Assembly: GCA_000004985.1 (NCBI GenBank)
Contig: GG738899.1
Strand: one strand, 5' to 3'
Source: Naegleria gruberi
Taxonomy: Eukaryota
Length of the DNA stretch: 64,000 nucleotides
Below are positions 2,474-48,100 of the stretch, piece by piece (position 1 is the first letter of the stretch; every line of letters begins with the position of its first letter). The translations under genes and the position numbers were made by a program. Below the pieces are notes generated by a model. That model saw only the letters and a list, made by a program, of their open reading frames with translations, was not told where the DNA came from and searched no databases.

Positions 2474-4807
2474 TTACCATAATCCAAAGCTAAAGACGTC
2501 TCGGTTGAGTATAGATGATGAGGTGTTTTGATTTGAATCCTCTGGGGTGGGCGTGTCTTCATCTACTTTGTGGATTCCAGAGAGAAAATCTTTTACACTA
2601 TGAAGTGAGAGTGTTCTCCTGTTATTGTTTGATTTTTCTGATTCACTTGAGGAAGTGCTGCTATCTTGTTGATGTTGTGAACGGTGGTCATCTTTGGAAT
2701 CTTTGGTTCCAAGAAATATTCCTTTCACTGATTTACCAACACTCAGTAATTGTCTATGTATCTCAATAACTGGATGGATTTTTACACTCCTCTGTTGGCC
2801 AAATATATCTTTTTTGAGGTTTAGTAGAGTTCTCACAAGTTTTTCAGAGTCAGGTCTATCTTTAGGTTCTAGAGAGAGCATTGATATGATGAGATTGGCA
2901 AATCCTTCATGATATTTGCTACACCGTTTTCTGATCAGCCCGTGGAATTGTTGTTGATCTTTCATGGCCATAATGTATGGTGAAAAATTGAGGATTTCAC
3001 ATCCAACAAGCTCTAGAAAAACTATTCCCATTGACCATATATCAGAGGAGTAAATATAATTCATGAATAAAGATGTAGGGGCTATTGGTTCCTTAGAATC
3101 CAACTCTGTTATATCTTTAACACCAATATGACACTCTGGTGATTGATATTTGATAGTACCTGCACTTGAGATTGTATCATTCAAATTTTTAGAGGTTAAT
3201 GATCTCAAATTATAAATTAAACCAAAATCTCCAATTTTACATTCTTTGAATTTTGAACTGAGTAAAATGTTCTTTGGTTTTATATCTCTGTGAAGAAGCC
3301 CATTCAAATGAAGATGATTTAGACCGGCAGACATTTGAATCATCAGAGACAGCAGGTGAGCCTCTTGAATTGTTTGGCCTTGATCTTTGTGTCCATTAAT
3401 GAATTGTTCTAAATCTCCATCATCCATGTATTCCATTACTAGACAGAGTGTAAATAGTGATGAGAATTCATTGTCTGATTTTGAAAAGTAAATGTCCTGT
3501 ATAGATATTAATTGAGGATAGCTGATTTTTCTGATTGGCCAAAATTCAACGAGGGCATCATTTGCATTATTGATATCGTCACAATTAATTTTCTTAATAC
3601 CAACTGTTACTCTATCGGATTTTCTTACAGCTTTGTACACTTTACCAAAAGATCCTCTTCCGACTTCTTCCAGAATTTCATAATGACTCTCTTCATACAG
3701 ATTTTCACTATTATTTTGTGGTAGATCAAAATTGCTGTCACATATGCTTGTCAGTTTTTCAGATGATGGTTTCTTCTTAAGGCCGGATAATATGAACGAG
3801 TCATCAAATGAAATTGTTTCGTAATCATGTAAGCTCTCTAAAGAATTATTTGGTGATATGTGGTGCTTCACACCCTCGAATTTTTGTGGTAATATTAATT
3901 TCATTCCTATTGTAACAACTCCTGTTTTATCTTTACCTCGTTTCAGAGATAGTTCAATCATATCCACAGATCTAGATCTAAAATCCATCAATCTGTTAAT
4001 ATCATACACAGCCTCTCCAATAAAGTTAACATGAGGTTTACATTTCATTATATAGTTGTGAAGCATTTCTGAAGTGGCAGAAATGTTATCCAATTGCATA
4101 GCAATTTGTGGTAGAATTTTCTTCGACTCCAACGATGAAGAATGTTCAAATACATAATGTGATTCATTACTATTATTACTAGCTGAATTGCAAATGGTCA
4201 TAACTTGTTGATATTCTGCCTCTGATAATTGGATTGGTAATATAACCTTCTCTCCTTTCCATTTGAATGTAAATCCATCAGAGAGAGGTGATTTTCTAAT
4301 TCGAGATGAATGGGCTACTACTTGTTTATATTCATCACCTAATAATTCTTCTTGTTCATCACTTCTTTTTACACTAAATGTTAAACAAGTATCAAATATC
4401 GAAGCACTAAAGTATTGAGTAAAACTCAAATCACTTGCAAGTGTTACAGTTCCAATACTAAATTCAATTCCAATATGATTCGGAGGTAAAATTAATGGTT
4501 GTTTGTTATTTTCCTCGATATCTTCTTCATCAGAATGATTATATTTATCACTAATTAAATTATCATTTTCCGTAATTAAATTATGTAACATTTCACTAAA
4601 TGATTTCCTTCTCGGATGTTCTTGTTGCTGTACTTTGAGAGTATTGTTATTATTATTCTGTACATTTGATTTTTCCTTGTTTCGATCATTACTATTATTA
4701 TTATTACTATCGGAAGATGATTGTGGTGGTGTAGTCGTTGGTGTTGGTGAGGAGGTTGATGAACTCTTGTCCAATCCCATAAACGACCTGAATCCACCAA
4801 AGAACAT
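2474..4807 (-). CDS. Ser/Thr protein kinase (777 aa) with a large N-terminal non-kinase region and a C-terminal kinase domain.
   Basis: Kinase subdomain motifs are present: GRGSFGKVYKAVRK...VGIKKI (Gly-loop and VAIK-like Lys), HRDIKPKNILL (catalytic loop), DFGL (DFG) and SDIWSMGIVFLEL (subdomain IX). Single uninterrupted ORF. Confidence 0.8.
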   Translation of the reverse strand: MFFGGFRSFMGLDKSSSTSSPTPTTTPPQSSSDSNNNNSNDRNKEKSNVQNNNNNTLKVQQQEHPRRKSFSEMLHNLITENDNLISDKYNHSDEEDIEENNKQPLILPPNHIGIEFSIGTVTLASDLSFTQYFSASIFDTCLTFSVKRSDEQEELLGDEYKQVVAHSSRIRKSPLSDGFTFKWKGEKVILPIQLSEAEYQQVMTICNSASNNSNESHYVFEHSSSLESKKILPQIAMQLDNISATSEMLHNYIMKCKPHVNFIGEAVYDINRLMDFRSRSVDMIELSLKRGKDKTGVVTIGMKLILPQKFEGVKHHISPNNSLESLHDYETISFDDSFILSGLKKKPSSEKLTSICDSNFDLPQNNSENLYEESHYEILEEVGRGSFGKVYKAVRKSDRVTVGIKKINCDDINNANDALVEFWPIRKISYPQLISIQDIYFSKSDNEFSSLFTLCLVMEYMDDGDLEQFINGHKDQGQTIQEAHLLSLMIQMSAGLNHLHLNGLLHRDIKPKNILLSSKFKECKIGDFGLIYNLRSLTSKNLNDTISSAGTIKYQSPECHIGVKDITELDSKEPIAPTSLFMNYIYSSDIWSMGIVFLELVGCEILNFSPYIMAMKDQQQFHGLIRKRCSKYHEGFANLIISMLSLEPKDRPDSEKLVRTLLNLKKDIFGQQRSVKIHPVIEIHRQLLSVGKSVKGIFLGTKDSKDDHRSQHQQDSSTSSSESEKSNNNRRTLSLHSVKDFLSGIHKVDEDTPTPEDSNQNTSSSILNRDVFSFGLW

Positions 4808-8653: not shown

Positions 8654-10275
8654 TTACTCATTATGATTAGATGCACCATCTAGAAGAGATTCATTAATAC
8701 GATTGTTTTGAGATTCCACATTTCTCTTATTGGAAGAATCACTCAATTTTCCACATCTGAAACAAGATTGATAACAAATTTTCAATTCATCCAAACTAAA
8801 TTCCATATATAACAAGCCACTGACCACAATAAATAAAATAAAATTCAGAATGGCACCAATAATTGGTTCAGTAAATTCAGCTCCAGTGTTCTGAGATTCT
8901 TGAACCAGATAAATTATTACCATTAATATAAAACATGGAAATACAATGGAAACAAATATCAAAAAGTTGGCATACTAAAATTGTTAATTATTTCCATATA
9001 TATATTTAACTCACCCCAGTGTTCCAAATATTAATATCTGATACTTTTTTCATAGCTCTAGCGATAATTAATCCAACAATTAAAAATACTTTTTCATTAT
9101 TGTTATGATTTACTTTCTAAAAAAGTATTACTTACTAAATATAGATAATAACAACCAAAGTGCAATAAATATTTTGACATATTGAAAAGCAAATGACTGA
9201 ATAATAGCTATTGATACAATCCCTAATACTGAGAATATAATTGGTATAGCATAAATCAATATACTATAAATGGTTTTTCTCTTATTGACAACGCCAAAAC
9301 TATTCGTGACCAATTTCCTAACCAGGAGAATAAAGCCAAAAATAAGAAAATATGAAAATAATCTGACACTATTACCACAATGGTTCTCTGGTAATTCTCA
9401 AATCTAAGGATGTATCTATACAAATAAGTTCCAAATTCACTACAAATCCTAAAAGTAATATATAAAATAGTAATAATTGGATATAAGGATCTTAATTTGA
9501 CACACTGAATGAGTTTAGGAATGAAAACTAAGAAGAATGCAATAATTAATTGACCAAATGTCAATATTATTGAAATGATACCAACTGCAAAAGTGAGATA
9601 TTGCTTATTTGGAGAATAAAAACATTTTTCAAAGAATGCACTGTCATTAATAGAGCAAGCACAAAAGTATGAAAATGGATATCTCAAAATTCCATTCACA
9701 TTTGATTGATTAAATAAAAAAGGAAATCCAAAAATACTGTCTCCACAATAAAGCAATCTTGTTGGAAAATAATTAATCATCTCATGTAACATAACCAAAT
9801 TAGGATTACATTCTTCTCGTTTCACCATTTTCCTATAAATTAAACTGTTATTTCCACAATATTGACATGCATTAATCCATTCCTCTGCTGAACTATCCAA
9901 TCTTCTCATCATATCAAGAGTAGCAGCATTTGCATTACACAACACTTCAAAGCAAGTTTGATTTAAAGTTTTTTCTAATTTTCCAATTTTTTCACAAATA
10001 TTAATTCTCGGAGATTGATAAATTAATTTGGTTGATTCGGAATCAATGGTTGGTCCTTTGGTTATTACTAGAGAGACATTGCTGGTGTATGAAACATCGA
10101 GACAATTGAAATTATTTGGAAGAAACTGATCTAAATCATATTTCGGAAAGAGAAACATTCGCCAAACGTTTTCAATTGTGCAGTTGGAGAAGAATACTTT
10201 CTCTGAACCATGGACTGTCAGATGGCAGGAAATGAGAAGGAATGCCGAGAGGATAAAGAGATACCTTGTTGACAT
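8654..10275 (-). CDS. Seven-transmembrane receptor-like membrane protein with a signal peptide and a Cys-rich ~190-aa N-terminal ectodomain. Proposed exons 9311..10275, 9136..9263, 9015..9088, 8654..8974, with introns of 47, 47 and 40 bp.
   Basis: MSTRYLFILSAFLLISCHLTVHG (signal), many Cys in the ectodomain, then 7 hydrophobic helices spread across ORFs 9256..10275, 9128..9313 and 8654..8962. Those ORFs lie in different frames and can only be joined by short GT..AG introns. The first donor (GTCACG) is weak, so the exon model is tentative. Confidence 0.45.
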
Positions 10276-15603: not shown

Positions 15604-15675
15604 TCCCGTGTAGTCCAATGGCTAGGATACCTGGCTTTCACCCAGGAGGTCCGGGTTCAATTACCGGCATGGGAG
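15604..15675 (+). tRNA. tRNA-Glu (anticodon UUC), 72 nt.
   Basis: Acceptor stem TCCCGTG/CATGGGA (one G-U pair). Anticodon stem CCTGG/CCAGG with loop CTTTCAC (TTC). T arm CCGGG-TTCAATT-ACCGG, which has an A where the stem-closing C61 is expected. The anticodon position is anchored by ORF 15459..15641. Overall close to eukaryotic tRNA-Glu(UUC). Confidence 0.65.
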
Positions 15676-18138: not shown

Positions 18139-21100
18139 ATGCCAGAAGTAATTACCAGCAGCACTGTTGGTAGAACAGCTTTCGGTCCCAACCTTTCCTT
18201 GTTGAAGGTAAGTTATTACTCATTTACATCTCGCAGTAATTTTTTTTTGACTTTCTAATAACAAACAAACTAAGAACTTCAAAATGAACATGTTGAAAAT
18301 AATATATAGGGTGGTACAATCTCTCAAACAATTGTTGGTTTAATAGTTTCTGCTTCTGTTGTTGCCTCTCTCGTTGTTACCATTGTAATGATTAGTGTTG
18401 GTGCAGGTGTTCAAAATCCAACATTGAAACCAGACTATTATGAACTTTACAAAAAGACACCATCAAAACTCTATCCTCTTCTCAATGATATTGATCCAAG
18501 AGGTGGTAATTTGACAATTTTAAATGTTACTCAACCATTACATGGTAAAGCTGTGTTATCTTCTGCTGGCATGGTTATTTATACAAGTATTGGTTCTTAT
18601 GCTGGTAATGATACTTTCGAATATTCGGTTACTAATGGATGGACAACTGCGACTGAACATGTTTATCTTAGTATTTTGAATCGTGCTCCAGAAGTAGTTG
18701 ACATGACATATACTGTTAATAAGAATTCAAAGAAAAATTCATTTGATTTATTTGGATATGAAAGTGAAATGGGTGCTAAAATTAAGGATATTGACGGTGA
18801 TGATTTATCTATTACTGACATTATTCTAGTTTCTCCTAATGTTGGTAGTTTAATCTCATTCGATCAAAATTACTTGTACTATACTCCTGCTTATGGTTTT
18901 AATAATATTGAATTACTTAACTATACAATCTCAGATGGTTATGCCAATGTTTCAGGTGTCATTACTATTAATGTTGCCAATGATAAACCAACAGCTGAAC
19001 CTGACACTTATACCATTACAAAGAATGCTTTGGGTACTTTTAATATTCTAGATAATGATTTTGATATTAATGGTGATAACATTTCAATTACCACTGCTGG
19101 TTTAGGTTCATCTGGTGTTGTTTTAATTTCCTCTGATAATTCAAATATCGAATATATTCCAAAGCCATTTGTAGCTCCATATACTGATGCTTTTGAATAT
19201 GAAATCACTGATGGAGCTTTGACAAGTTCTAGTTATGTTTTTGTAAAGATTGTCAATTCTCCTCCAACTGTTTCTGATAAGGTTTTCAATGTTGCAAAGA
19301 ATTCAAAGAATAATCTTTTAGATTTGACATTCTCTGATCCAGATGTACTTGATACTGTTACCTTGACAGCTGTTAGTAAGCTTGCTCGTGGTAATTCCTC
19401 ATTGTCTGTTACTAGCTCAATGGCATCTGTTTATTATCCAACAGGTGACTTTTTACAAGTTAAGAAGAATTTGTACTCTCTTGTTTATACACCAGATCAA
19501 GGTGTTATTTATACTGATTCCTTTAAGGTCAAAGTTAGTGATGGTGTGGATGTTGCTTATGCCACCATTACTATTAATGTAGTTCCTTCTCCTCCTGTTC
19601 CTGTTAATGATACTGTCACTTGTCAAAAGAATGGACAAGTCTCTCTTGATGTTATCAGTAATGATTATAGTGCTTCTGGTGATGTTTTGAAATTGAATTT
19701 TGCATCATCTACTTCCAATTTTGGTGGTAAACTTGTTAAGATTGATGATAATAATGTAAAATATGAGCCAGCTAAAGGATTCCTTGGTCAAGATGAAGCT
19801 CAATACATTGTTATTAACACTAACACTGATGGATCTAGTGAAGGTACTTTCAATAGAGAGGGATATGTTCTTGTTAATGTTGTGAACTCACCTCCAGTTG
19901 CTGTTCCATTAACTTTGACAGTTTCAAAGGGTTTGACAAGTGCTCTTAATTTATTAAGAGATAGTTATGATCCAAATGGTGATTCTATTAATTATAATAG
20001 TATTGCTAAGAGTACTTATGGAGTTTCATTGTCCTTCACTTCTGGTAATGCAAATGTTAATTATGCTGCCTTGTCATCTGTCTACGTTGATTATGTTGAC
20101 TTTACTGTTGTTGATATTGATGGAGCTATTTCACAAGTTGCTACAGCTACCATTAACGTTGTTAATGATGCTCCTGTTCCAGTTGATGATACTGCTGCTG
20201 TTTCTTGGAATAGAAGTATTGTCATTGATGTTTTGGCAAATGACAAGGATGTTAATGGTGATTCTCTAAGTGTTAAGAGTGTTAGTTATACTTCTAATAA
20301 TGGTGCAACTGTTACTGTTCATCAAGGTGGTAAAACTGTTCTCTACACTCCAAAGGATGGATTTGTAGGAAATGATACCTTCTCCTATGTTTGTTTTGAT
20401 GGAATTGATTCATCTGTCACTTCTGGATTGGTGACAGTTGTTGTTAGTAATACTGCTCCATCTACTTCTCCAGTTACTGTTAGTGTTCATTGGAGAGATT
20501 CTTCAGTTATTATTCCAGTATTGACCTATGCCAGTGATATTGATGGTGATTCTCTTCATGTTGAATCTTTCACACAAGGATCAAAGGGATCTGTTTCACG
20601 TGTTACACTTACTGATGGTACAGATGGTTTGCAATTTACTACTTCTGGGTCAAATAACTATGTTGGAAGTGATTCTTTTACTTTTGTTGTTAGTGATTAT
20701 GGTAAATCAAGTGTTGGAAGTGTCAACATTCAAATTACTGACACTGCTCCTGTTGCCAATGCTGATTCATTCTCAATGCATTGGAGATCAACTGATAATG
20801 TTTTATCTGTTCTTGCTAATGATGTCGATGCTAATATTGATCCAATTACTGTCAAATCATTTACTAAACCACAAGGTTTTACTGGAACACTTGTCAATGT
20901 TAATTCTCATTTGACATTTACACCAAGTGCTTCAAGTGTTGGTACTCAAACATTTACTTACACTGCTACTGATGGTCCATCAACAAGTAATGATGCTACT
21001 GTCACATTAACTGTTACCAATAAGGATATTCCACAAGATAAGACAATTTCCAAGACTGTTCACTGGTCAACTCAATCAACTGGTACTACTATTACCATTT

Positions 21101-24100
21101 TCTCAAGTGCCAATCCAGTTGATACTGATGGTGATTCATTGAGTATTTCTTCTACTCTTGTTTCTCCTTCAAGTGGTTCAATTACAATTTCCAATTCTGA
21201 TATTCCAAGTGTTGTTTACAAACAAAATACTGGATTCCTTGGAACTGATACTTTCAAGATTCAAATCTCTGATGGTGCTGCTACTGCTATTGTTACCATT
21301 TCTGTTACTGTTTATGATAATGCTCCATTGTCTAATGATATTTCTGAAAATAGACATTTTACTGAAGTTAGTAATGGATATACTAAGAATGCAATTTCAT
21401 TCTTCAATGTTACTGATATCGATTCTCAAGATAGTGTCACTGTTAAGGATGCTACTGTTGGATCTTGTGGTTCTGTCTCAAAGACTTCTTCAACTGTCAC
21501 ATTCACAAGTAATAAGGGAAGTGTTGGTGTTTGTACTGTAACTATCACATTTACTGATGGTCTATTGAATTCTGTATCCAAGTGGAATGTCAATGTTCAA
21601 AATCAAGATCCTTCTGCCGCACCAATTAGCACTACCGTTCACTGGAGTAAGAGTCAAGCTATTATTGACATTATGTCAACTTTGTCTGATGCTGATAATG
21701 ATGCCTTGTCTTATTCAGTTTCATCTTATGATTCCACATTCGGTAGCCCATCTATCAATTCTGATAAGGCTCTCGTATGGACTCTTCCACAAACACCAAA
21801 ATTAGGAACAACTCAAATTGTAATTTCATTCACAGATGGATGGGTCAGTAAGACTGCTTCTTATCCATTGATTGTTCAAAACGTTGCACCAACTGCAGTT
21901 GCAAAGACAATTTCATCAAAGTGGTCTGCATGTCTTTCTGGTATTACTATTGATATTTTGAGTGAATGCTCAGATAATGACGGAGATAGTTTGTCATTTG
22001 ACAGTACTACGCCAATTGTTACTGCTCCAGCTCAAGGAAGTGCTTCAATTGTTTCTTCAAAGGTTTATTACAAACAATCAACTGCTTCTGTTGGTTCTTA
22101 TTCCATTACTTACAAGATTACTGATGGTATTCAAACTTCATCAAACTCTATTACTGTCAATTGTGAAGATAATGCTCCTGTTGCTAATGCTGATTCAATT
22201 ACTGTTAATTGGAATACCTCTGATGTCGATATTACTATTTTGTCTAACGATATTGATTCAGATAATGATATTCTTTCTGTCACTAATCTTTCAGCTGTCA
22301 GTGAAGGTTCTTTAACTAATTTAGGTACTTTTGTTAAATATACTTTGAAGAAACCACCAACCCTTTCTGACAAGACATTCACCTATAAGGCATTCGACGG
22401 AGCTCTCTATTCCTCTGCTGCAACTGTCACTGTCAAAGTTGTCAATGCCAACAAGCCACAAATTAGTGATCAAAGTACAACTGCTCACTGGAGAACTGTC
22501 AAGGATGGTGTTTCATACACTGTCTATGATACTCTTACCGATGCTGATGGTGATTATTATTCACTTTCATTTGGTAGTGGTTCAAGTGCTTATTGTTCAC
22601 TTATTGACCTTTCGAATGGTATTAAGGGTGTTAAATATACTAGAAATGCATTCGATTCCACTGATTCTTGTAAAGTAGTTCTCTCTGATGGATTCAGTAC
22701 AAGTGCTGCCACATTAACAACCAACTCTTACAATAATGTTCCAGTTGCTGCCAACTTTACTTTAGATTATTCTGGTGGTAATATTCAATATGGTATTTCA
22801 ATTGATGTTTTGTCATCTGCTACAGATGCTGATATTCAAGATGTTCCATTCCTTTCCATTTTAAGTGTTGGAAATTCCAAATTATATGGTAGTGAAGCTG
22901 CAAATATTGTAAATGGACAAGTTTTCTATTTCCCAGATCAATCATTAGTTAAAGCATTGGGTACTGATACTGTTGCTTATACTATTAGTGATGGTTTATC
23001 AACATCTATTGGTTATCTCACTATTAACATCAAGTCAACTTCTCCATCCAGTACTGAACAATATTACAATGTTCATTTTAGATATTCAAGTGTTGGTTAT
23101 GTTTTCACACCATTGACAAAGATTGCAGATGCCACTAAACTTGATACTACTGTTGTTCAAGGAAGTGAACCAAATCAAGGTGGTTCAGTTGTTGTTTCTA
23201 GTGTTGATGAAAAGACAGTTACTTACAAACCATCTGGTTCCTATTTAGGTAATGAAATTTTCAAGTTAAAGTATTATACTGCTAGTGGTAGTAGTGATAT
23301 TACTTTTACAATGAATATTTATGATACTGCTCCAATTGCTCAATCACTTTCTGGTTCAGTTCATTTTGGTAAATCAACAACATTCAATTTAACTGCTTCA
23401 ACTTCAGATGCTGATCCATTGGATGTCAATAATTTGTCATTCTCAATTACTGGTCAACCATCTCAAGGATCTTTGAGTGTTTCATCAAATATTGCCACTT
23501 ATACTGCATCATCAACTGTTGGAACCTATTCTGGTATTTACAGAGTTTCAGATTCTATGAAATCTTCTACTGGTTCTATTACTTTGACTGTAACTAATAC
23601 TGTTCCTACTTCACAAACTAAAACCATTTCAGTTCCTTGGAGAACTTTCAAGGCAGGTTTTAATATTGATGTCTTGAATTTAGCACCAGCTGATTTTGAT
23701 AATGATGGAGATGAGTTGAGTTTGGTTTCAATTGCTCTTCAACCATCAGTTGGTTCAGTAACTAAATTGGATAGTAAGAGAGTTAGTATTGTTGGTTCAG
23801 GAAACTTTGTTGGTTCACTTACATTCAAATACATTGTTAGTGATGGTGCCTCAAATGGTCAAGTCACAACCACAGTTAACTTGAATGTTTACAACACTGC
23901 TCCAGTTGGTATTCCAGATAAGCTCTCTACCCACTGGAATGTTGCCTCAAAGACATTGAATGTTATTGCCAATGACACTGATGCTGAATCAGATCCTTTA
24001 ACTGTCACATCCGTTTATGGATCTTTAGCTTCAACTGCTCCAACTTTCACTTCTGATAGTATTGTCTATTATCCAAAGAATGCTCCATCAACAGATACAG

Positions 24101-27100
24101 TTTATTATACAGTTTCTGATAATGTTGCTACATCTATTTCATATGTCACTGTTACTGTAACTAACACTGCTCCAACTACAACTTCTCAATCATTTGTTGG
24201 TTCTTGGTCTTCAGCTAAGAATGGTTTAACATTTGACGTTGTTTCTACTTCTTCTGATGCTAATGGAGATTCATTGTCATTGCAATCATGCTCTTCATCA
24301 GTTACTTCCTCTCAAGGTAATGTCACTTGTTCTGGAAATGTCAAATTCACTCCAGCCAGTGGTTTCGTTGGTAGTATCAACCCAATCAGTTATATTATCA
24401 CTGATGGTAGAGACACTGTCACTGGTACTGTTTCCATTACAATTTTGAATAATGCTCCTACTGCTAATACTACAAATACTTTCAGATATCATTGGAGAAG
24501 TGTTTTGAGTAATACTGTTATTGATCTTTCTTCATATCTCAAAGATGCTGATGGTGATGCTGTTACTTTGACAGCTGTCACAAAGACACTTGTTGGTGTT
24601 GCTTCTCTTGGATCAGGAAATACCATTAACTATAAGGTTAATAGTGCTTACACTGGTACTGATTCAGTCACTGTCTCATTCACTGATGGATGGTCAACTT
24701 CAAGTGCCACTTTCAATATTGTAATTTACAATAACGCTCCTGTTGCTCAAAATATCATTACTTCAACTCACTTGGCAACTTTGAACATTCCTGTGATTGG
24801 ATCTGGTTCAAATCAACCAACAGATGCTGATGGAAGTGTTGATCTTAATAATTTAGTCATTTCTTCATTCTCAAATCCATCAGTTGGAAGTGTTTCTTTG
24901 AGTGGTGATAAGAAATCATTCACATTCACTAACGTTGCTGGAAATGTTGCCACTCAAACATTTACCTATGTCGTTTCAGATGGAAAGGATACTTCTGCAT
25001 CAAAGACTGTTACAATTTCCATTACAAACAATGCACCATCTGCAACTCCAATTACCATTTCTAAACATTGGGCTACAGTACAAGGTGGATTAGATATTAA
25101 TTTATTGTCTGTTGTAACTGATTCTGATGGTGATTCTCTTTCAATTACTTCATTCACTCAAACAAATAATGGAGCTGTTTCTTCAATCAATTCAACATCT
25201 GTCAAGTATATTCCAACACCATTGACTGCTGGTTTCACAACTTCATTCACCTATTCAGTTTATGATGGTTATACTACAATTTCAAATACTGTTACAATTT
25301 CAATTACCAATACACCACCTGTTGCAGTTGATGATACCATCACTGTTCACTGGACCAATAATACATTGTATTTGAAACCAGTTGTGAATGATTATGATTT
25401 GGATAATGATTACATTTATATTAACAAATTGTATCCATCTCAATTTATGAATGCCTATGCATCAATGGGTAATTATATCATCATTTCAAAGGGAACAACT
25501 ATTGTTAATAACTTTGCAAGTGTTGTCGTTCCTGGAAGCGTTGCAACTGCTGGATTTGTTAATCAAGTTCTTCAACCAACTGGCTCACTAAATGTTAATA
25601 ATGCTGCTCAACTTGCCATTGTTAATGCTGCTACTAATTTGTATCAATCATTGAGTTTATATACTTGTACTGCTTCATTAGATCAATCATTCCCATCTTC
25701 AAATGTTTTGAGTTTCTCACCTGGTGTCTATTGTTTCCCACAAGGTTTATCTGGTTCTGGTACCATCTTGTTGAGTGGTTCAGGTCTTTACATTTTCAGT
25801 ATTTCCACTAATTTGAATGCTAACTTCCAATGGTCATTCACAAATGGAGCTAGTGCTTCAAATGTTTATTGGTTGGTTGGTGCTGCTGGTATTTCAGGAA
25901 CTTTCTATGGTCATGTTTTGAGTAATGGTCAACTCAATTTCAATAATGTTGTTCAAAATGGTGTTATTATGAGTTTAGGATCAAATTCAATGAGTTTGAA
26001 TAGTGTTACTTTTGGTTCCGTTGTTATTCCAACTGGACAAACTGCCTTGGAATTACAATCTGACAAGTTGACTGTCTATTATAAGAATACTTTCATTAAT
26101 GGACCAGCAACTGACTCATTCCAATACACAATTACTGATCAAATTGCCACTTCTAATGTTGCTATTGTCAAATTGGTCTTTACCAATACTGCTCCAGTTG
26201 CCACTTCATTCTCAGCTGGTAAAGTTACATGGAAAAATACCTTAACAACTGCAAGTGTTGTTTCCAAGTATTGTTCTGATGCTGATAAGGATTCATTGAG
26301 TTTATTCGGAGTTACTCAAGGTAAATACGGAACTACTACAGTTACCGATTCTACAAGTGGTACCATTGTTTATACACCAAGTAGTTCAATTTCCTATACC
26401 TCTGTTGATTCCAATGGAGCTAGTTATGTAACTGATCAAATTACTTTTGGATGTTATGATGGAGCTCAAGTTACATATAACACATTCTCTGTTGTCGTTT
26501 ACAATACAGCTCCAAAGAGTGCTTCTAAATCACTTAGTGTTCAAAGAGATACTTCAAATCCAACTGTTACATTGAATGATTTGTTGGTTGGTGCTACAGA
26601 TGCTGAGGGTGATTCAATTTCTGTATCAAGTGTTTCAATGATTTCACAAAATACTGGTGCTTCTGTCTTGTTATCATCCAATACTGCTAAACTCACTTAC
26701 ATAACTTCATATTTAGGTTCAATTGTCTTTTCATTCACTTTAACTGATGGTCAATTGAGTTCAACTTATAATTATAATGTCACTATTACTGGTGCTCCAT
26801 TCTATTGTGTTGATTATACCATTAGTACTACCAAAGATTCCTCTGCTGTCACTTTCGAAACTGATTTAAAGTCTAAATTGTCAAGCTATTGTGTTAATGA
26901 TGTTTGTACTTTGGCTCTTGCTTCAACTGCATCACTCAATGGAGTTGGTTCAATTGCTGCCAATGGTAATAACTTGTTGACATATACTCAAAATTCCAAG
27001 TCATCATCAAATGGAGAATCCTATTCCACTTACTCATATTCTAATAGGGCAGGTCAAAGCGCAATTTGTAAGATTATCATTAATCAACCAAATAATGCAC

Positions 27101-29412
27101 CAACTGTCTATGATTATACTTATAGTTACTCAATTAGTAGAGCTTCTAATGATTATGTTACATTTGATTATGTTAGTTTATCATCCTCTGATGATCCAGA
27201 TGCTTCTGACTCAATTGTATTGAGTAGTATTTCAAGTGTTGGTACATGTACAACTAGTTCTATCAGTAGTTTGTCAATTACTAGTGATAACCAAATCAAA
27301 TTCTTGAGAAATCCATCATTCATTGGAAGTTGTTCATTCTCTTTGGTTGTTTCTGATAGTGATTTGAGAAATCCAATCTCTAAAACTGCAAAAATTACAA
27401 TCAATGCCATTTCTTCTCCACCAGTTGCTGTCAATGATGCTGTTTCTACAACCTATAACACATATATTGATATTCCAGTTTCCACATTACTTGGAAACGA
27501 TTATGATTCACTTGGTGGTACATTCTCATTCACTGGTATTAATTGCCCAACAGGTGATTCAACTTATTGTACAGCAGGCACTCCAACTATTCTCAATCCA
27601 TCTGATCCTGCAAATACAAGAATCATCAGAGTTCAACCAATTAAGGGATCTTGTAATTCTCAAAAATTCGTTTATGGTATCAAATCTGATTCTGATTCAA
27701 CAACTGCCACAGCTATTGTTACAGTTTCTTATACCAAATGTACATGTTCTTTGAATATGGATATTGTATTTGTTTTGGATGGTAGTTCATCTATTGATGC
27801 AGGAAATTGGATTAACATGCAAAACTTTGCATCCAATTTAACTGTTGGATTTGGTTCAAACATTTCACCAACTGCCACCAAGATTGGTATCATTCAATTC
27901 TCTACAACAACTGTAACTCACTTGGATTTGAAAGATGGTACTTCCAAGACAGCTGTTCTTAATGCCATTTCATCAGCTGGTCAACTCAAATCCAGTACCA
28001 ACTCAATTTTAGGTATTAACAATGCTGTTTCAATGGTTTTAAGTCAAGGTAGAAAGGATATCACTAGAAAACTCTTAATTCACATTACAGATGGTATGTC
28101 CAATTTACCTTGTGGTATGGGAGCTTGTCGTGCCATGTATGGTAGTGATAAGTCATTATATGGATCTGTTCCTAATTATTGTAAGTCACCTCGTTTCCCA
28201 GGTACTGATGCAACAATATGCTCATGGAATGAACCACTCAGTAGATGTAATCCTTGTTCTGATGCTACTCTTAGATCAACTGATTTGAATTCTTGGACAG
28301 TTGGAGGTGCTTCAAATCCAGAAAAATCAACTTATGGATCTATTTGGAATTGGAGACAATTAGTTGTAGGTATTGGTGATGGTTTGAGTTCTGGGTATGG
28401 ACAACTTCAAATTCAAAAGATGAATTACGATCCAAACAATTTAATTGTTGTCGATTGGTCTGATTTGAGCTCTGTTTATCAAACTGTTATTGATAATAGT
28501 TGTAATCTTGTCGATTCCACTCAAACCAACGTTCTTGTTCCACTTTCAAGTTCTGGATATTCTATTCAATATCTTGGAAAGACATTGTCCAAATCAAGTT
28601 ACCTTAATTATGAAGCAACCATTTCAACATTCACTTATCGTGTTAGTGTCTCTTCATCAGCACCTGCTTTACAAAGATTTACCTTAGGATTACAACCTGG
28701 TTACAATCAAGATAACTTTGTAAATTATGATCCATACTTCCCAGTTTTCATTGGTCAAGACACTACCACTAATTTGAATGGTTTCACTTTCTTATCACTT
28801 CCAAATTCATATACAATTGCAGCTGGTTCATCAGATACCTATACATTGAGTATTGCTGGTGATATTCCTGAAGGTGTTATTACTTATGGTATGTCGGGTG
28901 GTTCACAATACACACAAGGAACTGTTAAGGGACCAAGTGGAGTGATCAACTCAACCACAGTTGCTCTTCCACCAAATATTAATTACGGTGATGATTCAAG
29001 TTATAGAACTACCTATTGTTCCTCAACCAAATGTTATTTCTTTACCAAGATGAATTATGCCTATCGTATTGAAGCAATGAGTAAGATTTGTAAATATTGG
29101 TCTGCCAATGCAACACTAGTTCAAATTCAATCATCCACTGAAAAGACCACACTCATCAATAATGTTTTACCTTACGATGAGAGTGCTACCTTCTTCTTAG
29201 GTACTAAGGATTCCGATATTGCAGTTGGATCAACAACTACATGGCAAGATGGTACATCCATGTCCTCCTATACAAATTATCAAAGCAAACAACCTGGTTC
29301 CTACACTATTATTTATGCTTCATATAATGCTAATTCTCCAACTGGTACTTGGTGGAAGGGAGGTAGTTATGATACCAACACTCAATATTTACTTTGTCAA
29401 TTTAAGAAATAA
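18139..29412 (+). CDS. Giant type-II membrane adhesin-like protein (~3,720 aa). Exon 1 18139..18207, intron 18208..18309, exon 2 18310..29412. Architecture: TM anchor, about 28 tandem cadherin-like Ca-binding repeats, a DUF3494 (ice-binding-like) beta-helix, vWA domain, C-type lectin domain.
   Basis: MPEVITSSTVGRTAFGPNLSLLK|GGTISQTIVGLIVSASVVASLVVTIVMISVG is the TM segment. It is followed by ~95-100-aa repeats, each ending V-x-N-x-A-P-(V/T)-A (VVNDAPVPVDD, VSNTAPSTSP, VYNTAPVGIPD, ITNNAPSATP...) and containing D-x-D-G-D-S-L. The DUF3494-like stretch is at ~25440..26070; vWA has DIVFVLDGSSSID (MIDAS); the CTLD has KCYFF...WQDG...QP...WWKGG...CQF. The single 11.1-kb ORF is anchored to ORF 18388..29412. 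Confidence 0.8.
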
Positions 29413-32877: not shown

Positions 32878-33314
32878 ATATCCCATCTTCCATATTATTA
32901 TTAATAGGAGGAATTCAAGTAAAGATTTATTAATTCCTCTAAATAATGAATAATTTGTTTTACAGTTTCATTTGCATAATGTTTCTGGATTCTATAAGTC
33001 AATTATGGAGTTATTGTAATCAAAGATCTCAAAGAATGATGAAATAGTAGATGTTGTTTGTCAACTGATGAACAACTTTAAAATGGCTCATTTGTATCTC
33101 TTGAAAAAACTAATTGTTTCAAAAGCAGTGCAAATTGTTAAAGGAGTAAATGTAAAGTATGAAATGCAGCCACAGCAATACATTACTAAACTGATACTTA
33201 AAGCTAAAATGTGAAATTCCATAAAAACTAACTCGTTTCTCCCTCATGGTTTAATTATGATCAATAAACAATTTCAAATTATTAAATATTAATAATTTGA
33301 ATTTTGAACAAAAA

Positions 33315-34766
33315 ATGAGTGAACAACAACAAGAAACTACCACCATTCCTACAACCACTAGTACAACTGATGGTACTACTGTAGGATCTACAACAACTAC
33401 CATTTCATCATCGGAGTTGGTAAATGAACAAAATGACAAGAAGAGAAAGAATAAATTTAATAATAATAATAATAACAATAAGAAAAATAAGAAGCAAAAT
33501 AACAAACAACAAAATAGTAACAAGGAAAGAGATGATGAAGATGCAGATTTTGATGTGAGTGGAGAAGATTTAATGATTGAAGATGAATCTACATTGGTTC
33601 ATTCATCATTTCCATTTGTTATTTCCTTCTCTTATAATGGAATTCCTTTCAATGGATTACAAATTCAAAATGGAGAAAATTTAGTTAAACATCCACATTT
33701 ATTAACTATTGAAGCAGTTTTATTGGATATTCTTTATGGTTCTAATGGTGAATCAGATTTTGAACAAGATGAAACAATTATTAGATATACTAAATCTAAA
33801 AATTGTAAAGATATTAGATTACAAAGAGCTTGTAGAACTGATAGAGGAGTTTCTGCTGTTAGAAATGCATTTGCATGTGTAATGACATTACCAAATACTC
33901 AAAATCATAAGGATACATTTAAATTTAATAACGAAGAACTTTGTAAAACATTGAATGATAGAATTAATAATCATGTTAGAATTAAGAATCTCAATTTGAT
34001 GGATCAAATCAAAATTTTCAATATTCAAAGAGTTCCATCAAGATTTGTATTACACCATTGGTGTCAATTTAGAAGATATCTCTATGTTTTACCATTATCT
34101 GCTTTGGATTTATCATCAAGAAATATTATTACAAAATGTAACAATATTTTCAATTTAGAAACAAATGAACAAAAATGTCAAAAATTGAATGAACTACTTG
34201 GACATTTTGAAGGAATTCACTTATTCCACAATTTTACAGTAGATGCTAAACCAGGTTCAGACAGTTCTAGAAGACATGTTAAAACTTTGAAAATTATTGA
34301 ACAAAACTTAGAAGGAGACTTGCCTCATGTTGTTATTGAAATTAGTGGAAGAAGTTTCATGTTACATCAAATTAGAATGATGATTGGTACTGTTATTGCT
34401 CTCATGCGTGGTATGGCACCAAATATGAATACTACAGTACAAGATAATACTATTGTCAATGATTTTTTCGAAAATTTATTCAAAGCACAAACAGAAGTGT
34501 TATTACCAATGGCTCCAAGTGAAGGATTATTCTTGGACAATTTGGATTTCCCAAATTTCAATGCCAATATTGTTAAACCACCTTTTGAACCAATTAAATG
34601 GACTGGAACAGCAGATGAACATGCAGAAATCTTTAAAAAGGATGTAATTTTACCAAACATTCTCAAAGTTTTGAAAGAAAAGAATGTTGTCAGTAATTGG
34701 CTCATTGATATTCATTGTAATAAGGCAAAATACTTTGCCAAGCTCGCTAATAAAAAGAAAAGGTAA
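33315..34766 (+). CDS. tRNA pseudouridine synthase, TruA/Pus1-Pus3 family. True ATG at 33315 (MSEQQQ); the ORF-track start at 33297 is TTG.
   Basis: Catalytic motif ACRTDRGVSAV (RTDxGVHA-type, with the catalytic Asp) and FMLHQIRMMIG (FLxHQVRxMVG-type). The N-terminus is N/T-rich low complexity (NKFNNNNNNNKKNKKQNNKQQN). Confidence 0.75.
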   Translation: MSEQQQETTTIPTTTSTTDGTTVGSTTTTISSSELVNEQNDKKRKNKFNNNNNNNKKNKKQNNKQQNSNKERDDEDADFDVSGEDLMIEDESTLVHSSFPFVISFSYNGIPFNGLQIQNGENLVKHPHLLTIEAVLLDILYGSNGESDFEQDETIIRYTKSKNCKDIRLQRACRTDRGVSAVRNAFACVMTLPNTQNHKDTFKFNNEELCKTLNDRINNHVRIKNLNLMDQIKIFNIQRVPSRFVLHHWCQFRRYLYVLPLSALDLSSRNIITKCNNIFNLETNEQKCQKLNELLGHFEGIHLFHNFTVDAKPGSDSSRRHVKTLKIIEQNLEGDLPHVVIEISGRSFMLHQIRMMIGTVIALMRGMAPNMNTTVQDNTIVNDFFENLFKAQTEVLLPMAPSEGLFLDNLDFPNFNANIVKPPFEPIKWTGTADEHAEIFKKDVILPNILKVLKEKNVVSNWLIDIHCNKAKYFAKLANKKKR

Positions 34767-43547: not shown

Positions 43548-43598
43548 NNNNNNNNNNNNNNNNNNNNNNNNNNNNNNNNNNNNNNNNNNNNNNNNNNN
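43548..43598. other. Assembly gap (51 N).
   Basis: Run of n. Confidence 0.99.
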
Positions 43599-45163
43599 GT
43601 GATTCAACTTATTGTACAGCAGGCACTCCAACTATTCTCAATCCATCTGATCCTGCAAATACAAGAATCATCAGAGTTCAACCAATTAAGGGATCTTGTA
43701 ATTCTCAAAAATTCGTTTATGGTATCAAATCTGATTCTGATTCAACAACTGCCACAGCTATTGTTACAGTTTCTTATACCAAATGTACATGTTCTTTGAA
43801 TATGGATATTGTATTTGTTTTGGATGGTAGTTCATCTATTGATGCAGGAAATTGGATTAACATGCAAAACTTTGCATCCAATTTAACTGTTGGATTTGGT
43901 TCAAACATTTCACCAACTGCCACCAAGATTGGTATCATTCAATTCTCTACAACAACTGTAACTCACTTGGATTTGAAAGATGGTACTTCCAAGACAGCTG
44001 TTCTTAATGCCATTTCATCAGCTGGTCAACTCAAATCCAGTACCAACTCAATTTTAGGTATTAACAATGCTGTTTCAATGGTTTTAAGTCAAGGTAGAAA
44101 GGATATCACTAGAAAACTCTTAATTCACATTACAGATGGTATGTCCAATTTACCTTGTGGTATGGGAGCTTGTCGTGCCATGTATGGTAGTGATAAGTCA
44201 TTATATGGATCTGTTCCTAATTATTGTAAATCACCTCGTTTCCCAGGTACTGATGCAACAATATGCTCATGGAATGAGCCACTCAGTAGATGTAATCCTT
44301 GTTCTGATGCTACTCTTAGATCAACTGATTTGAATTCTTGGACAGTTGGAGGTGCTTCAAATCCAGAAAAATCAACTTATGGATCTATTTGGAATTGGAG
44401 ACAATTAGTTGTAGGTATTGGTGATGGTTTGAGTTCAGGGTATGGACAACTTCAAATTCAAAAGATGAATTACGATCCAAACAATTTAATTGTTGTCGAT
44501 TGGTCTGATTTGAGCTCTGTTTATCAAACTGTTATTGATAATAGTTGTAATCTTGTCGATTCCACTCAAACCAACGTTCTTGTTCCACTTTCAAGTTCTG
44601 GATATTCTATTCAATATCTTGGAAAGACATTGTCCAAATCAAGTTACCTTAATTATGAAGCAACCATTTCAACATTCACTTATCGTGTTAGTGTCTCTTC
44701 ATCAGCACCTGCTTTACAAAGATTTACCTTAGGATTACAACCTGGTTACAATCAAGATAACTTTGTAAATTATGATCCATACTTCCCAGTTTTCATTGGT
44801 CAAGACACTACCACTAATTTGAATGGTTTCACTTTCTTATCACTTCCAAATTCATATACAATTGCAGCTGGTTCATCAGATACCTATACATTGAGTATTG
44901 CTGGTGATATTCCTGAAGGTGTTATTACTTATGGTATGTCGGGTGGTTCACAATACACACAAGGAACTGTTAAGGGACCAAGTGGAGTGATCAACTCAAC
45001 CACAGTTGCTCTTCCACCAAATATTAATTACGGTGATGATTCAAGTTATAGAACTACCTATTGTTCCTCAACCAAATGTTATTTCTTTACCAAGATGAAT
45101 TATGCCTATCGTATTGAAGCAATGAGTAAGATTTGTAAATATTGGTCTGCCAATGCAACACTA
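43599..45163 (+). CDS. 3'-partial second copy (paralogue or haplotig) of the giant adhesin gene covering the last cadherin-like repeat, vWA and most of the CTLD. It has no 5' part (gap) and no stop (runs into the next gap).
   Basis: 1,565 nt co-linear with 27554..29118 at >99.8% identity. I see only 3 substitutions (aag>aaa, gaa>gag, tct>tca), all synonymous in the adhesin frame. Confidence 0.6.
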
Positions 45164-48100
45164 NNNNNNNNNNNNNNNNNNNNNNNNNNNNNNNNNNNNN
45201 NNNNNNNNNNNNNNNNNNNNNNNNNNNNNNNNNNNNNNNNNNNNNNNNNNNNNNNNNNNNNNNNNNNNNNNNNNNNNNNNNNNNNNNNNNNNNNNNNNNN
45301 NNNNNNNNNNNNNNNNNNNNNNNNNNNNNNNNNNNNNNNNNNNNNNNNNNNNNNNNNNNNNNNNNNNNNNNNNNNNNNNNNNNNNNNNNNNNNNNNNNNN
45401 NNNNNNNNNNNNNNNNNNNNNNNNNNNNNNNNNNNNNNNNNNNNNNNNNNNNNNNNNNNNNNNNNNNNNNNNNNNNNNNNNNNNNNNNNNNNNNNNNNNN
45501 NNNNNNNNNNNNNNNNNNNNNNNNNNNNNNNNNNNNNNNNNNNNNNNNNNNNNNNNNNNNNNNNNNNNNNNNNNNNNNNNNNNNNNNNNNNNNNNNNNNN
45601 NNNNNNNNNNNNNNNNNNNNNNNNNNNNNNNNNNNNNNNNNNNNNNNNNNNNNNNNNNNNNNNNNNNNNNNNNNNNNNNNNNNNNNNNNNNNNNNNNNNN
45701 NNNNNNNNNNNNNNNNNNNNNNNNNNNNNNNNNNNNNNNNNNNNNNNNNNNNNNNNNNNNNNNNNNNNNNNNNNNNNNNNNNNNNNNNNNNNNNNNNNNN
45801 NNNNNNNNNNNNNNNNNNNNNNNNNNNNNNNNNNNNNNNNNNNNNNNNNNNNNNNNNNNNNNNNNNNNNNNNNNNNNNNNNNNNNNNNNNNNNNNNNNNN
45901 NNNNNNNNNNNNNNNNNNNNNNNNNNNNNNNNNNNNNNNNNNNNNNNNNNNNNNNNNNNNNNNNNNNNNNNNNNNNNNNNNNNNNNNNNNNNNNNNNNNN
46001 NNNNNNNNNNNNNNNNNNNNNNNNNNNNNNNNNNNNNNNNNNNNNNNNNNNNNNNNNNNNNNNNNNNNNNNNNNNNNNNNNNNNNNNNNNNNNNNNNNNN
46101 NNNNNNNNNNNNNNNNNNNNNNNNNNNNNNNNNNNNNNNNNNNNNNNNNNNNNNNNNNNNNNNNNNNNNNNNNNNNNNNNNNNNNNNNNNNNNNNNNNNN
46201 NNNNNNNNNNNNNNNNNNNNNNNNNNNNNNNNNNNNNNNNNNNNNNNNNNNNNNNNNNNNNNNNNNNNNNNNNNNNNNNNNNNNNNNNNNNNNNNNNNNN
46301 NNNNNNNNNNNNNNNNNNNNNNNNNNNNNNNNNNNNNNNNNNNNNNNNNNNNNNNNNNNNNNNNNNNNNNNNNNNNNNNNNNNNNNNNNNNNNNNNNNNN
46401 NNNNNNNNNNNNNNNNNNNNNNNNNNNNNNNNNNNNNNNNNNNNNNNNNNNNNNNNNNNNNNNNNNNNNNNNNNNNNNNNNNNNNNNNNNNNNNNNNNNN
46501 NNNNNNNNNNNNNNNNNNNNNNNNNNNNNNNNNNNNNNNNNNNNNNNNNNNNNNNNNNNNNNNNNNNNNNNNNNNNNNNNNNNNNNNNNNNNNNNNNNNN
46601 NNNNNNNNNNNNNNNNNNNNNNNNNNNNNNNNNNNNNNNNNNNNNNNNNNNNNNNNNNNNNNNNNNNNNNNNNNNNNNNNNNNNNNNNNNNNNNNNNNNN
46701 NNNNNNNNNNNNNNNNNNNNNNNNNNNNNNNNNNNNNNNNNNNNNNNNNNNNNNNNNNNNNNNNNNNNNNNNNNNNNNNNNNNNNNNNNNNNNNNNNNNN
46801 NNNNNNNNNNNNNNNNNNNNNNNNNNNNNNNNNNNNNNNNNNNNNNNNNNNNNNNNNNNNNNNNNNNNNNNNNNNNNNNNNNNNNNNNNNNNNNNNNNNN
46901 NNNNNNNNNNNNNNNNNNNNNNNNNNNNNNNNNNNNNNNNNNNNNNNNNNNNNNNNNNNNNNNNNNNNNNNNNNNNNNNNNNNNNNNNNNNNNNNNNNNN
47001 NNNNNNNNNNNNNNNNNNNNNNNNNNNNNNNNNNNNNNNNNNNNNNNNNNNNNNNNNNNNNNNNNNNNNNNNNNNNNNNNNNNNNNNNNNNNNNNNNNNN
47101 NNNNNNNNNNNNNNNNNNNNNNNNNNNNNNNNNNNNNNNNNNNNNNNNNNNNNNNNNNNNNNNNNNNNNNNNNNNNNNNNNNNNNNNNNNNNNNNNNNNN
47201 NNNNNNNNNNNNNNNNNNNNNNNNNNNNNNNNNNNNNNNNNNNNNNNNNNNNNNNNNNNNNNNNNNNNNNNNNNNNNNNNNNNNNNNNNNNNNNNNNNNN
47301 NNNNNNNNNNNNNNNNNNNNNNNNNNNNNNNNNNNNNNNNNNNNNNNNNNNNNNNNNNNNNNNNNNNNNNNNNNNNNNNNNNNNNNNNNNNNNNNNNNNN
47401 NNNNNNNNNNNNNNNNNNNNNNNNNNNNNNNNNNNNNNNNNNNNNNNNNNNNNNNNNNNNNNNNNNNNNNNNNNNNNNNNNNNNNNNNNNNNNNNNNNNN
47501 NNNNNNNNNNNNNNNNNNNNNNNNNNNNNNNNNNNNNNNNNNNNNNNNNNNNNNNNNNNNNNNNNNNNNNNNNNNNNNNNNNNNNNNNNNNNNNNNNNNN
47601 NNNNNNNNNNNNNNNNNNNNNNNNNNNNNNNNNNNNNNNNNNNNNNNNNNNNNNNNNNNNNNNNNNNNNNNNNNNNNNNNNNNNNNNNNNNNNNNNNNNN
47701 NNNNNNNNNNNNNNNNNNNNNNNNNNNNNNNNNNNNNNNNNNNNNNNNNNNNNNNNNNNNNNNNNNNNNNNNNNNNNNNNNNNNNNNNNNNNNNNNNNNN
47801 NNNNNNNNNNNNNNNNNNNNNNNNNNNNNNNNNNNNNNNNNNNNNNNNNNNNNNNNNNNNNNNNNNNNNNNNNNNNNNNNNNNNNNNNNNNNNNNNNNNN
47901 NNNNNNNNNNNNNNNNNNNNNNNNNNNNNNNNNNNNNNNNNNNNNNNNNNNNNNNNNNNNNNNNNNNNNNNNNNNNNNNNNNNNNNNNNNNNNNNNNNNN
48001 NNNNNNNNNNNNNNNNNNNNNNNNNNNNNNNNNNNNNNNNNNNNNNNNNNNNNNNNNNNNNNNNNNNNNNNNNNNNNNNNNNNNNNNNNNNNNNNNNNNN

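Follow-up and report, generated by a model that had tools for sequence, protein, structure and literature searches.

The ligand-binding domains of RTX adhesins are recognised by the way in which they bud from split immunoglobulin-like (Ig-like) domains near the distal end of the molecule, with their N- and C-termini adjacent (PMC12077191; PMC5550230). In a temperate diatom species, adhesion is mediated by the CAA domains of the Trailins, which resemble ice-binding proteins (IBPs) and for which ice binding is not predicted (bioRxiv 10.1101/2023.03.06.531300). DUF3494 (IBP-1) has been described as both ice-binding and substrate-binding (PMC12337378). No other ice-binding fold is as widespread, although the majority of DUF3494 proteins stem from ice-free places. 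The present analysis concerns a giant gene on a stretch of 64,000 nucleotides (nt) of contig GG738899.1 from Naegleria gruberi (assembly GCA_000004985.1), referred to below as the window, and in particular a DUF3494 domain that is nested inside one of the tandem repeats of its product. The window has an uninterrupted open reading frame (ORF) at 18388..29412 (+) for 3674 amino acids (aa), in which residues are numbered here unless the longer protein is named; the domain occupies 25444..26034 (aa 2353–2549) within repeat 25. All features of this gene lie on the + strand. In the literature searched, nothing relevant connects Naegleria with DUF3494 or with ice binding, or mentions the accessions of the gene and its protein.

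The nested IBP-1 domain and its host repeat

A preliminary description of the window, made by reading alone, had placed a DUF3494 domain at 25440–26070, which corresponds to aa 2352–2561, and the peptide quoted there is in frame within the ORF. PF11999 (Ice_binding) matches a 310-aa excerpt (window 25291–26220) with 38.8 bits (E=1e-9), where the gathering cut-off is 28.7, over positions 26–196 of the 208 of the profile, or aa 2370–2530 (nt 25495–25977). The phmmer matches among PDB sequences are ice-binding proteins (7bwx, E=8e-6; 3wp9, E=3e-4; 6bg8, E=0.024). Searched exhaustively with phmmer, 1.84 billion representatives yield 256 matches at E≤1e-3, and PF11999 is found in six of the eight best non-self matches (five above the cut-off and one below), the two without it being P0126 and P0128. 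A profile search started from the segment plus the single match of its first round reaches 5433 proteins; PF11999 is present in all among the matches listed, and those of them that have a source name are prokaryotic or simply labelled ice-binding. The preliminary description had called such domains sporadic in eukaryotes, and in the databases searched the family is overwhelmingly prokaryotic. A profile built independently from 120 prokaryotic homologues, with the window sequence left out, scores 62.8 bits (best stretch 62.2) on a 301-aa excerpt and, once the bias filter is disabled, 56.0 bits on the full protein (aa 2355–2542). The domain is complete, positions 9–197 of about 206 of this profile being aligned (envelope aa 2349–2547), and its last coils are without the GR.LA motif that is usual there. 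PF20597 (CAA, or pAdhesive_15) has no match at E≤1 in the excerpt scan, where PF11999 is the only solenoid family listed. By sequence, fold and completeness, the segment is a genuine member of DUF3494/PF11999, as had been proposed.

This domain is easily missed by routine searches. At the default settings of HMMER, PF11999 is reported neither in the full-length ORF nor in the public protein of 2816 aa, even at E≤10. The independent profile likewise finds nothing on the full protein in a default run, and it recovers the domain at 56 bits with --nobias or --max. The bias filter, which is triggered by the Ser/Thr/Asn-rich repetitive protein, conceals the IBP domain; the public domain annotation of this entry is probably without PF11999, and standard annotation has probably overlooked comparable domains elsewhere, in further giant repeat proteins of low complexity. 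A word-indexed protein search with the IBP segment gave one match, which was not the 100% identical source protein, and all proteins that it listed for an N-terminal query were below about 770 aa in length, so that very long proteins seem to be poorly covered. Absences in that search are weak evidence, since giant proteins seem poorly reachable there.

The surroundings of the domain were dissected with a hidden Markov model (HMM) of 96 positions that was derived from 18 repeats of the same protein. Up to about aa 2300 it recognises 24 complete repeats (repeats 1–24, 18418..25290), which make up a predicted extender stalk of tandem-95, Big_9 or cadherin-like β-sandwiches, and four to five after aa 2593, 29–30 in total. 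NCBIfam NF012211 (tandem-95 repeat) matches 18 stretches with 423.7 bits (cut-off 90), Pfam Big_9 reaches 610 bits in 26 stretches, Cadherin_4 and Cadherin_5 match too, and a D-x-D-G-D type motif occurs in most repeats; by these family matches the product is classed as a tandem-95 repeat protein. Repeat 25 is represented by two pieces. The N-terminal half (25285..25443, aa 2300–2352) matches HMM positions 1–53 with 34.2 bits and E=1.3e-12, and the C-terminal half (26035..26166, aa 2550–2593) matches positions 43–94 at aa 2539–2591 with 12.3 bits and E=8.6e-6. When aa 2300–2352 are joined to aa 2550–2593, the score rises to 66.7 bits, and most intact repeats score 65–102 bits. Because the two HMM halves flank the IBP segment and its excision restores a 66.7-bit repeat, repeat 25 is, as judged from the repeat profile, a split repeat with the whole of the domain nested inside. 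The repeats that follow (repeats 26–30, four to five in number and more degenerate, 26164..27534) are matched by Big_9 and by the repeat HMM at aa 2593–2680, 2698–2794, 2803–2888 (weakly), 2898–2991 and 3002–3049 (in part). The preliminary description had correctly noticed that a discrete module breaks the periodicity (about 100 aa in that description, about 95 aa here) after 24 repeats, with about four following, but this module interrupts repeat 25 instead of standing between repeats. A nested domain needs neighbouring ends, and in the canonical DUF3494 topology (PMC11645318) the last coil is brought beside the first, which fits the nesting.

The fold was predicted by AlphaFold2 for a 303-aa construct (aa 2298–2600) with an alignment of 120 IBP homologues only; alignments that mixed the construct with whole or half repeats were dropped, as IBP homologues were misaligned onto the repeat halves. 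The core of the domain (construct residues ~105–240, aa 2402–2537) is modelled with a predicted local distance difference test score (pLDDT) of 84–96 and consists of a long helix (construct residues 109–126) followed by stacked strands. In a Foldseek comparison with the PDB, 30 matches are obtained at E≤2e-4, all of them IBP-1/DUF3494 crystal structures, and the next match has E=0.23. These 30 have a probability of 1.00 and template-modelling (TM) scores, normalised to the target, of 0.33–0.66 (0.46–0.66 for single-domain targets), and they include FfIBP, SfIBP_1, IBPv, AnpIBP, ColAFP, FcIBP, TisAFP, LeIBP and EfcIBP. The predicted fold is the IBP-1 β-solenoid with a long α-helix alongside, so that the β-helix foreseen for this segment appears in the model together with the match to PF11999.

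Relatives and origin of the domain

The closest relatives of the domain are found in N. gruberi itself. In the paralogue XP_002675978.1 an IBP domain is combined with a PhoPQ-related domain, and in XP_002682683.1 it is combined with EGF and REJ; these domains are 46% and 41–42% identical to that of the window. The three N. gruberi domains match one another with 122–137 bits, match P0126 with 90–124 bits and match any other domain with at most 79 bits. P0126 is a metagenome protein in which the IBP domain comes after a signal peptide and is accompanied by an Asn-rich tail, and the four domains are mutual best matches. In another relative, from a metagenome contig (P0128 and P0131), the IBP domain comes after an S8 peptidase. 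The motifs GVYCFPQGL, TNLNA and N.NN, which the window domain has in common with its N. gruberi paralogues, are lineage-specific. The variety of partners in the N. gruberi and metagenome proteins points to shuffling of a binding module in protists. Heterolobosea is hereby added to the eukaryotic groups with DUF3494, and the presence of at least three architectures in one genome suggests shuffling after an old acquisition.

Among prokaryotes, a GTDB scan gives 18 IBP loci from soil and aquatic organisms with 27–42% identity, and the closest named relatives are metagenome-assembled genomes (MAGs) of Nitrosotalea, Cytophagales, Acidobacteriota, Vicinamibacterales and Burkholderiales, a number of which originate from soil. 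The single most similar named prokaryotic protein (P0095) comes from the MAG of Nitrosotalea, an ammonia-oxidising archaeon. Many of the soil metagenome contigs with the most similar IBP domains (loci L019–L051 and others) have a low GC content (0.33–0.42). A metagenome scan with the nested 303-aa construct gave no match, and a scan with the three N. gruberi domains gave 80 IBP loci, none of which has tandem-95 repeats beside the IBP domain. A partial orthologue of the N-terminal repeats is present in N. lovaniensis with 51% identity.

The composition of the segment is that of its host gene. Its GC content and its GC content at third codon positions (GC3) are 0.350 and 0.203, against 0.348 and 0.188±0.029 for the gene, and the cosine of its relative synonymous codon usage (RSCU) is 0.886, against 0.932±0.038 for other chunks of the gene, and so lies inside their spread. 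Horizontal transfer from bacteria had been suggested beforehand. An ultimately prokaryotic origin of both the head and the tandem-95 stalk is plausible, but a recent transfer is contradicted by the host-like GC and GC3 and by the N. gruberi paralogues as nearest relatives. Any transfer would therefore be old and, if so, would have been followed by domain shuffling within the lineage.

The gene and its other modules

The exhaustive phmmer search identified a 100% identical stretch in a public protein of N. gruberi, XP_002672240.1 (EFC39496.1, "predicted protein" NAEGRDRAFT_72752), which contains an IBP domain identical to that of the window. The source, previously taken for an amoebozoan, is accordingly a member of Heterolobosea in Discoba. 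The N-terminus MPEVITSSTVGRTAFGPNLSLLK of XP_002672240.1 matches at 18139..18207, which is exon 1 of the gene, and a GT...AG intron visible in the window at 18208–18309 separates it from the main coding exon. The window ORF extends in frame back to 18310, and the main exon (18310..29412) is continuous to the stop codon and gives, with exon 1, a protein of 3723 aa. The public model of 2816 aa drops four in-frame repeat blocks (ORF aa 610–707, 778–994, 1260–1313 and 1628–2168), inside which the repeats are regular and no stop codon occurs. These internal "introns" look like artefacts of the gene model, and the protein is probably 3723 aa long, because the frame is open throughout the blocks that the public model removes.

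The only hydrophobic segment of the protein, TIVGLIVSASVVASLVVTIVMISVGAG (18328..18408), is a putative N-terminal signal anchor or transmembrane helix. Kyte–Doolittle windows of 19 aa exceed 1.6 only at starts 26–41, together residues 26–59 of the 3723-aa protein, and the segment arises from exon 1 plus the start of the main exon. At the other end of the protein, beyond the last repeats, the N-terminal two thirds of a von Willebrand factor A (VWA) domain (27760..28104, aa 3125–3239) match PF00092 with E=4.7e-20 over profile positions 1–116 of 174, and a D-x-S-x-S motif (LDGSSS) can be read in its sequence. The distal tail (28105..29409) consists of an 83-aa segment with six cysteines and about 350 aa without a Pfam or NCBIfam match. 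A VWA domain carrying the 83-aa Cys-rich stretch as an insertion was considered and is not borne out, since excision of the stretch leaves the Pfam match unextended. The last ~130 aa of the tail look C-type-lectin-like by eye and have weak snaclec matches (E=0.1–0.15), and a single-sequence AlphaFold2 model of the last 163 aa is unusable (pLDDT 41), so that a C-type lectin at the tail end is a guess.

N-x-S/T sequons number 26 in the protein against 70±7 in shuffles, a depletion of about 2.7-fold, and the reverse motif is undepleted. The depletion is seen in every region of the protein, the IBP domain having none against 4.7 expected. In nine of 12 neighbouring ORFs the number of sequons is within one standard deviation (SD) of expectation; the ORF at 33297..34766 is low (2 against 6.6, about 2 SD) and that at 9256..10275 is enriched. 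The depletion in the giant protein fits passage through the endoplasmic reticulum with selection against N-glycans on β surfaces.

The genes neighbouring the giant gene are typical eukaryotic ones, and a tRNA-Glu gene (anticodon TTC) lies upstream of it at 15604–15675 (+), between two protein-coding ORFs. The window also contains, at 43599–45163 (1565 bp), a copy of 27554–29118 with 99.8% identity (3 mismatches), which covers the end of the repeats, the VWA domain and part of the tail and is flanked by N-gaps at 43548–43598 and 45164–59552. Two explanations offer themselves: the scaffold includes an allelic or misplaced contig here, or a second copy lies in the 14.4-kb gap and only this piece of it is visible.

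Possible function and comparison with known systems

We think it rather likely that the product is an anchored, adhesin-like surface protein whose IBP-like solenoid serves as a ligand- or surface-binding head on the split repeat and was acquired from prokaryotes long ago. The protein would enter the secretory pathway and remain anchored at the cell surface, and the stalk of repeats would keep the distal modules away from the membrane. By analogy with the split Ig-like domains of RTX adhesins, the split repeat would project the solenoid sideways; the prediction that the solenoid is the binding head comes from applying the split-domain rule of these adhesins to the present architecture. The flat face of the solenoid would most likely bind an ordered surface or polymer, for instance the substratum, the surface of bacteria or other cells, or material of the cyst or matrix. 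The preliminary description had suggested polysaccharide or ice-like hydrated surfaces as possible ligands; the architecture speaks for a generic adhesin head. The module would probably have been gained from prokaryotes and then shuffled in the Naegleria lineage. If so, the split-domain rule for ligand-binding heads may apply to eukaryotic surface proteins, and an IBP head on a megaprotein of a culturable temperate amoeba offers a concrete case for a surface-binding role other than ice binding.

Several observations weigh against this proposal. In the AlphaFold2 model the first coil of the IBP domain has a pLDDT of only 48–58, and the flanking repeat halves stay below 50, because the IBP-only alignment gave them no depth; the geometry of the split repeat is thus not seen structurally and rests on the HMM evidence. 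Among the 98 loci fetched there is no second IBP domain nested in a tandem-95 repeat, and none of them has tandem-95 repeats adjoining the IBP domain. The proposed anchor presupposes that the 5' exon and its intron are annotated correctly, and a cleaved signal peptide is another possible identity of the hydrophobic segment. Only two thirds of the profile are covered by the VWA match, and the z-score of the sequon depletion is inflated, as the repeats are not independent. The T-A/G-x-T/N motif of FfIBP, for which a regular expression finds no match in aa 2353–2549, is not universal in the family, and its lack is compatible with ice binding, since the ice-binding sites of IBP-1 proteins have no universal motif.

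The last point bears on the question of which ligand the head would bind. The domain may be a functional ice-binding domain, which would make the protein a eukaryotic ice adhesin, or an inhibitor of recrystallisation for freeze tolerance at the cell or cyst surface, like MpIBP or SfIBP_1. It shares fold and family with proven IBPs, the matches include the working IBPs from Chlamydomonas sp. ICE-MDV (E~1e-12 to 1e-13), and an extender with an ice-binding head is the layout of known or proposed ice adhesins (6bg8). Soil amoebae meet frost, and polar Naegleria species have been described; N. gruberi NEG-M, on the other hand, is a temperate soil and freshwater isolate. Ice binding is kept in play by the exposure of soil amoebae to frost and the missing universal motif, but we consider it unlikely and rank a non-ice ordered surface or polymer above it. 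The ranking is made because DUF3494 is common among soil prokaryotes that do not live in the cold or on ice, because the FfIBP-type motif is absent, and because fusions of the domain to PhoPQ-related hydrolase-like, EGF and REJ modules in N. gruberi, and its position after an S8 peptidase in the metagenome relative, fit a general binding module better; in addition, the Trailin CAA domains set a precedent for an adhesive IBP-like fold, and the survey cited above calls DUF3494 substrate-binding as well. A wider proposal would cover both kinds of ligand. The protein could be what a prokaryotic mega-adhesin of the split-domain type corresponds to in a eukaryote, and might even descend from one by domestication; anchored by an N-terminal transmembrane helix, it would grip substrata or bacterial prey while the cell crawls and feeds, or ice in freezing soil, with the laterally projected DUF3494 solenoid, the VWA domain and a lectin-like tip. 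We hold this tentatively and with considerable doubt. If it were true, the rule by which a ligand-binding head is recognised from a split extender repeat would hold for protists as well as for Gram-negative bacteria, and DUF3494 would be a general module for binding ordered surfaces, with ice binding as one specialisation.

It might also be argued that the insertion does nothing in particular, being a mobile domain tolerated in the loop of one repeat as a neutral passenger or a purely structural spacer without a ligand. No ligand is known, the nested arrangement is shown in one genome only, and the domain is divergent, as its PF11999 score of 38.8 bits and the lack of GR.LA in its last coils indicate. 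This explanation seems improbable to us in view of a reading frame intact across 11 kb, a domain that is both complete and confidently modelled, the conserved lineage-specific motifs common to the domain and its paralogues, and the lack of sequons in it, which suggests constraint on its surface. An artefact, whether it came from contaminating bacteria, from chimeric assembly or from a fragment of a pseudogene, is hardly credible. The scaffold is gapped and holds the 1.56-kb near-identical partial copy of the gene between two gaps, and the repeats belong to Pfam families regarded as "bacterial"; but the continuous ORF runs in frame through the domain, which is flanked by the halves of one repeat, its composition and codon usage equal those of the rest of the gene, its genomic neighbours are typically eukaryotic, the identical domain is present in the public N. 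gruberi protein, and its nearest relatives are other N. gruberi proteins. Contamination and chimerism are ruled out by frame, composition and paralogy.

The adhesin-like surface protein that we favour can be set beside several described systems. TisAFP, LeIBP, AnpIBP, FcIBP and the IBPs of Chlamydomonas ICE-MDV are of the same fold and family. These canonical eukaryotic DUF3494 proteins are small and secreted, consist of single or tandem IBP domains, come from ice-associated fungi and algae and have demonstrated activity, whereas the Naegleria protein has one divergent domain inside 3723 aa, is putatively anchored and belongs to a temperate amoeboflagellate. The N. gruberi paralogues differ from it in their partner domains and in that their IBP domain is terminal or stands between unrelated domains, not inside a repeat. 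The diatom Trailins, with their CAA or pAdhesive_15 domain (PF20597), are likewise giant extracellular eukaryotic adhesion proteins from a temperate organism, with an IBP-fold solenoid of bacterial origin and, in one member, a vWA-like domain (bioRxiv 10.1101/2023.03.06.531300). They belong, however, to another Pfam family, are secreted without an anchor, have proline-, threonine- and serine-rich (PTS-rich) spacers instead of Ig-like repeats, and do not have the domain nested.

Among bacterial proteins, SfIBP_1 of Shewanella frigidimarina (6bg8) shares the combination of DUF3494 with tandem bacterial Ig-like domains and is matched with E=1.1e-6 by Foldseek and E=0.024 by sequence. It is far smaller, has Big_2 repeats, comes from a cold-adapted host and has measured ice binding, and its DUF3494 domain is reportedly terminal and not nested. 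The Ig-like extender and anchor of such ice adhesins have their equivalents here in the 29–30 repeats and the one hydrophobic segment, a putative anchor. MpIBP, the 1.5-MDa ice adhesin of Marinomonas primoryensis, resembles the Naegleria protein in being a giant surface protein with modules for binding sugar, peptide and ice at the distal end of an extender of about 120 Ig-like repeats, and differs in that its ice-binding domain is a Ca-dependent RTX-like solenoid and not DUF3494, which is absent from Marinomonas genomes (PMC5550230).

The closest parallel in architecture is with the RTX adhesins (AhLap, FrhA and region III of MpIBP), which have a membrane-proximal anchor, a long extender made of Ca-type Ig-like tandem repeats and a distal head that buds from a split repeat (PMC12077191; PMC5550230). 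They also have a few ordinary repeats between heads and a vWFA domain near the C-terminus, and the same order is found in the Naegleria protein, where the repeat split into HMM positions 1–53 and 43–94 would correspond to the split Ig-like domain. A Pfam scan of the whole Naegleria protein gives no RTX nonapeptide repeats, HemolysinCabind or type I secretion signal. The outer-membrane retention domain of the RTX adhesins is replaced by a hydrophobic N-terminal segment, the extender is of the tandem-95/Big_9 type, and the head is a DUF3494 solenoid, which is not described as a split-domain head in PMC12077191 or PMC5550230. Because it has neither RTX repeats nor any type I signal and has a eukaryotic host, the Naegleria protein would be RTX-like in its working and not a member of that family. 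The domain and the repeat families were already known, and what is new is their arrangement in a eukaryotic protein, where an extender repeat is split and displays the DUF3494 domain.

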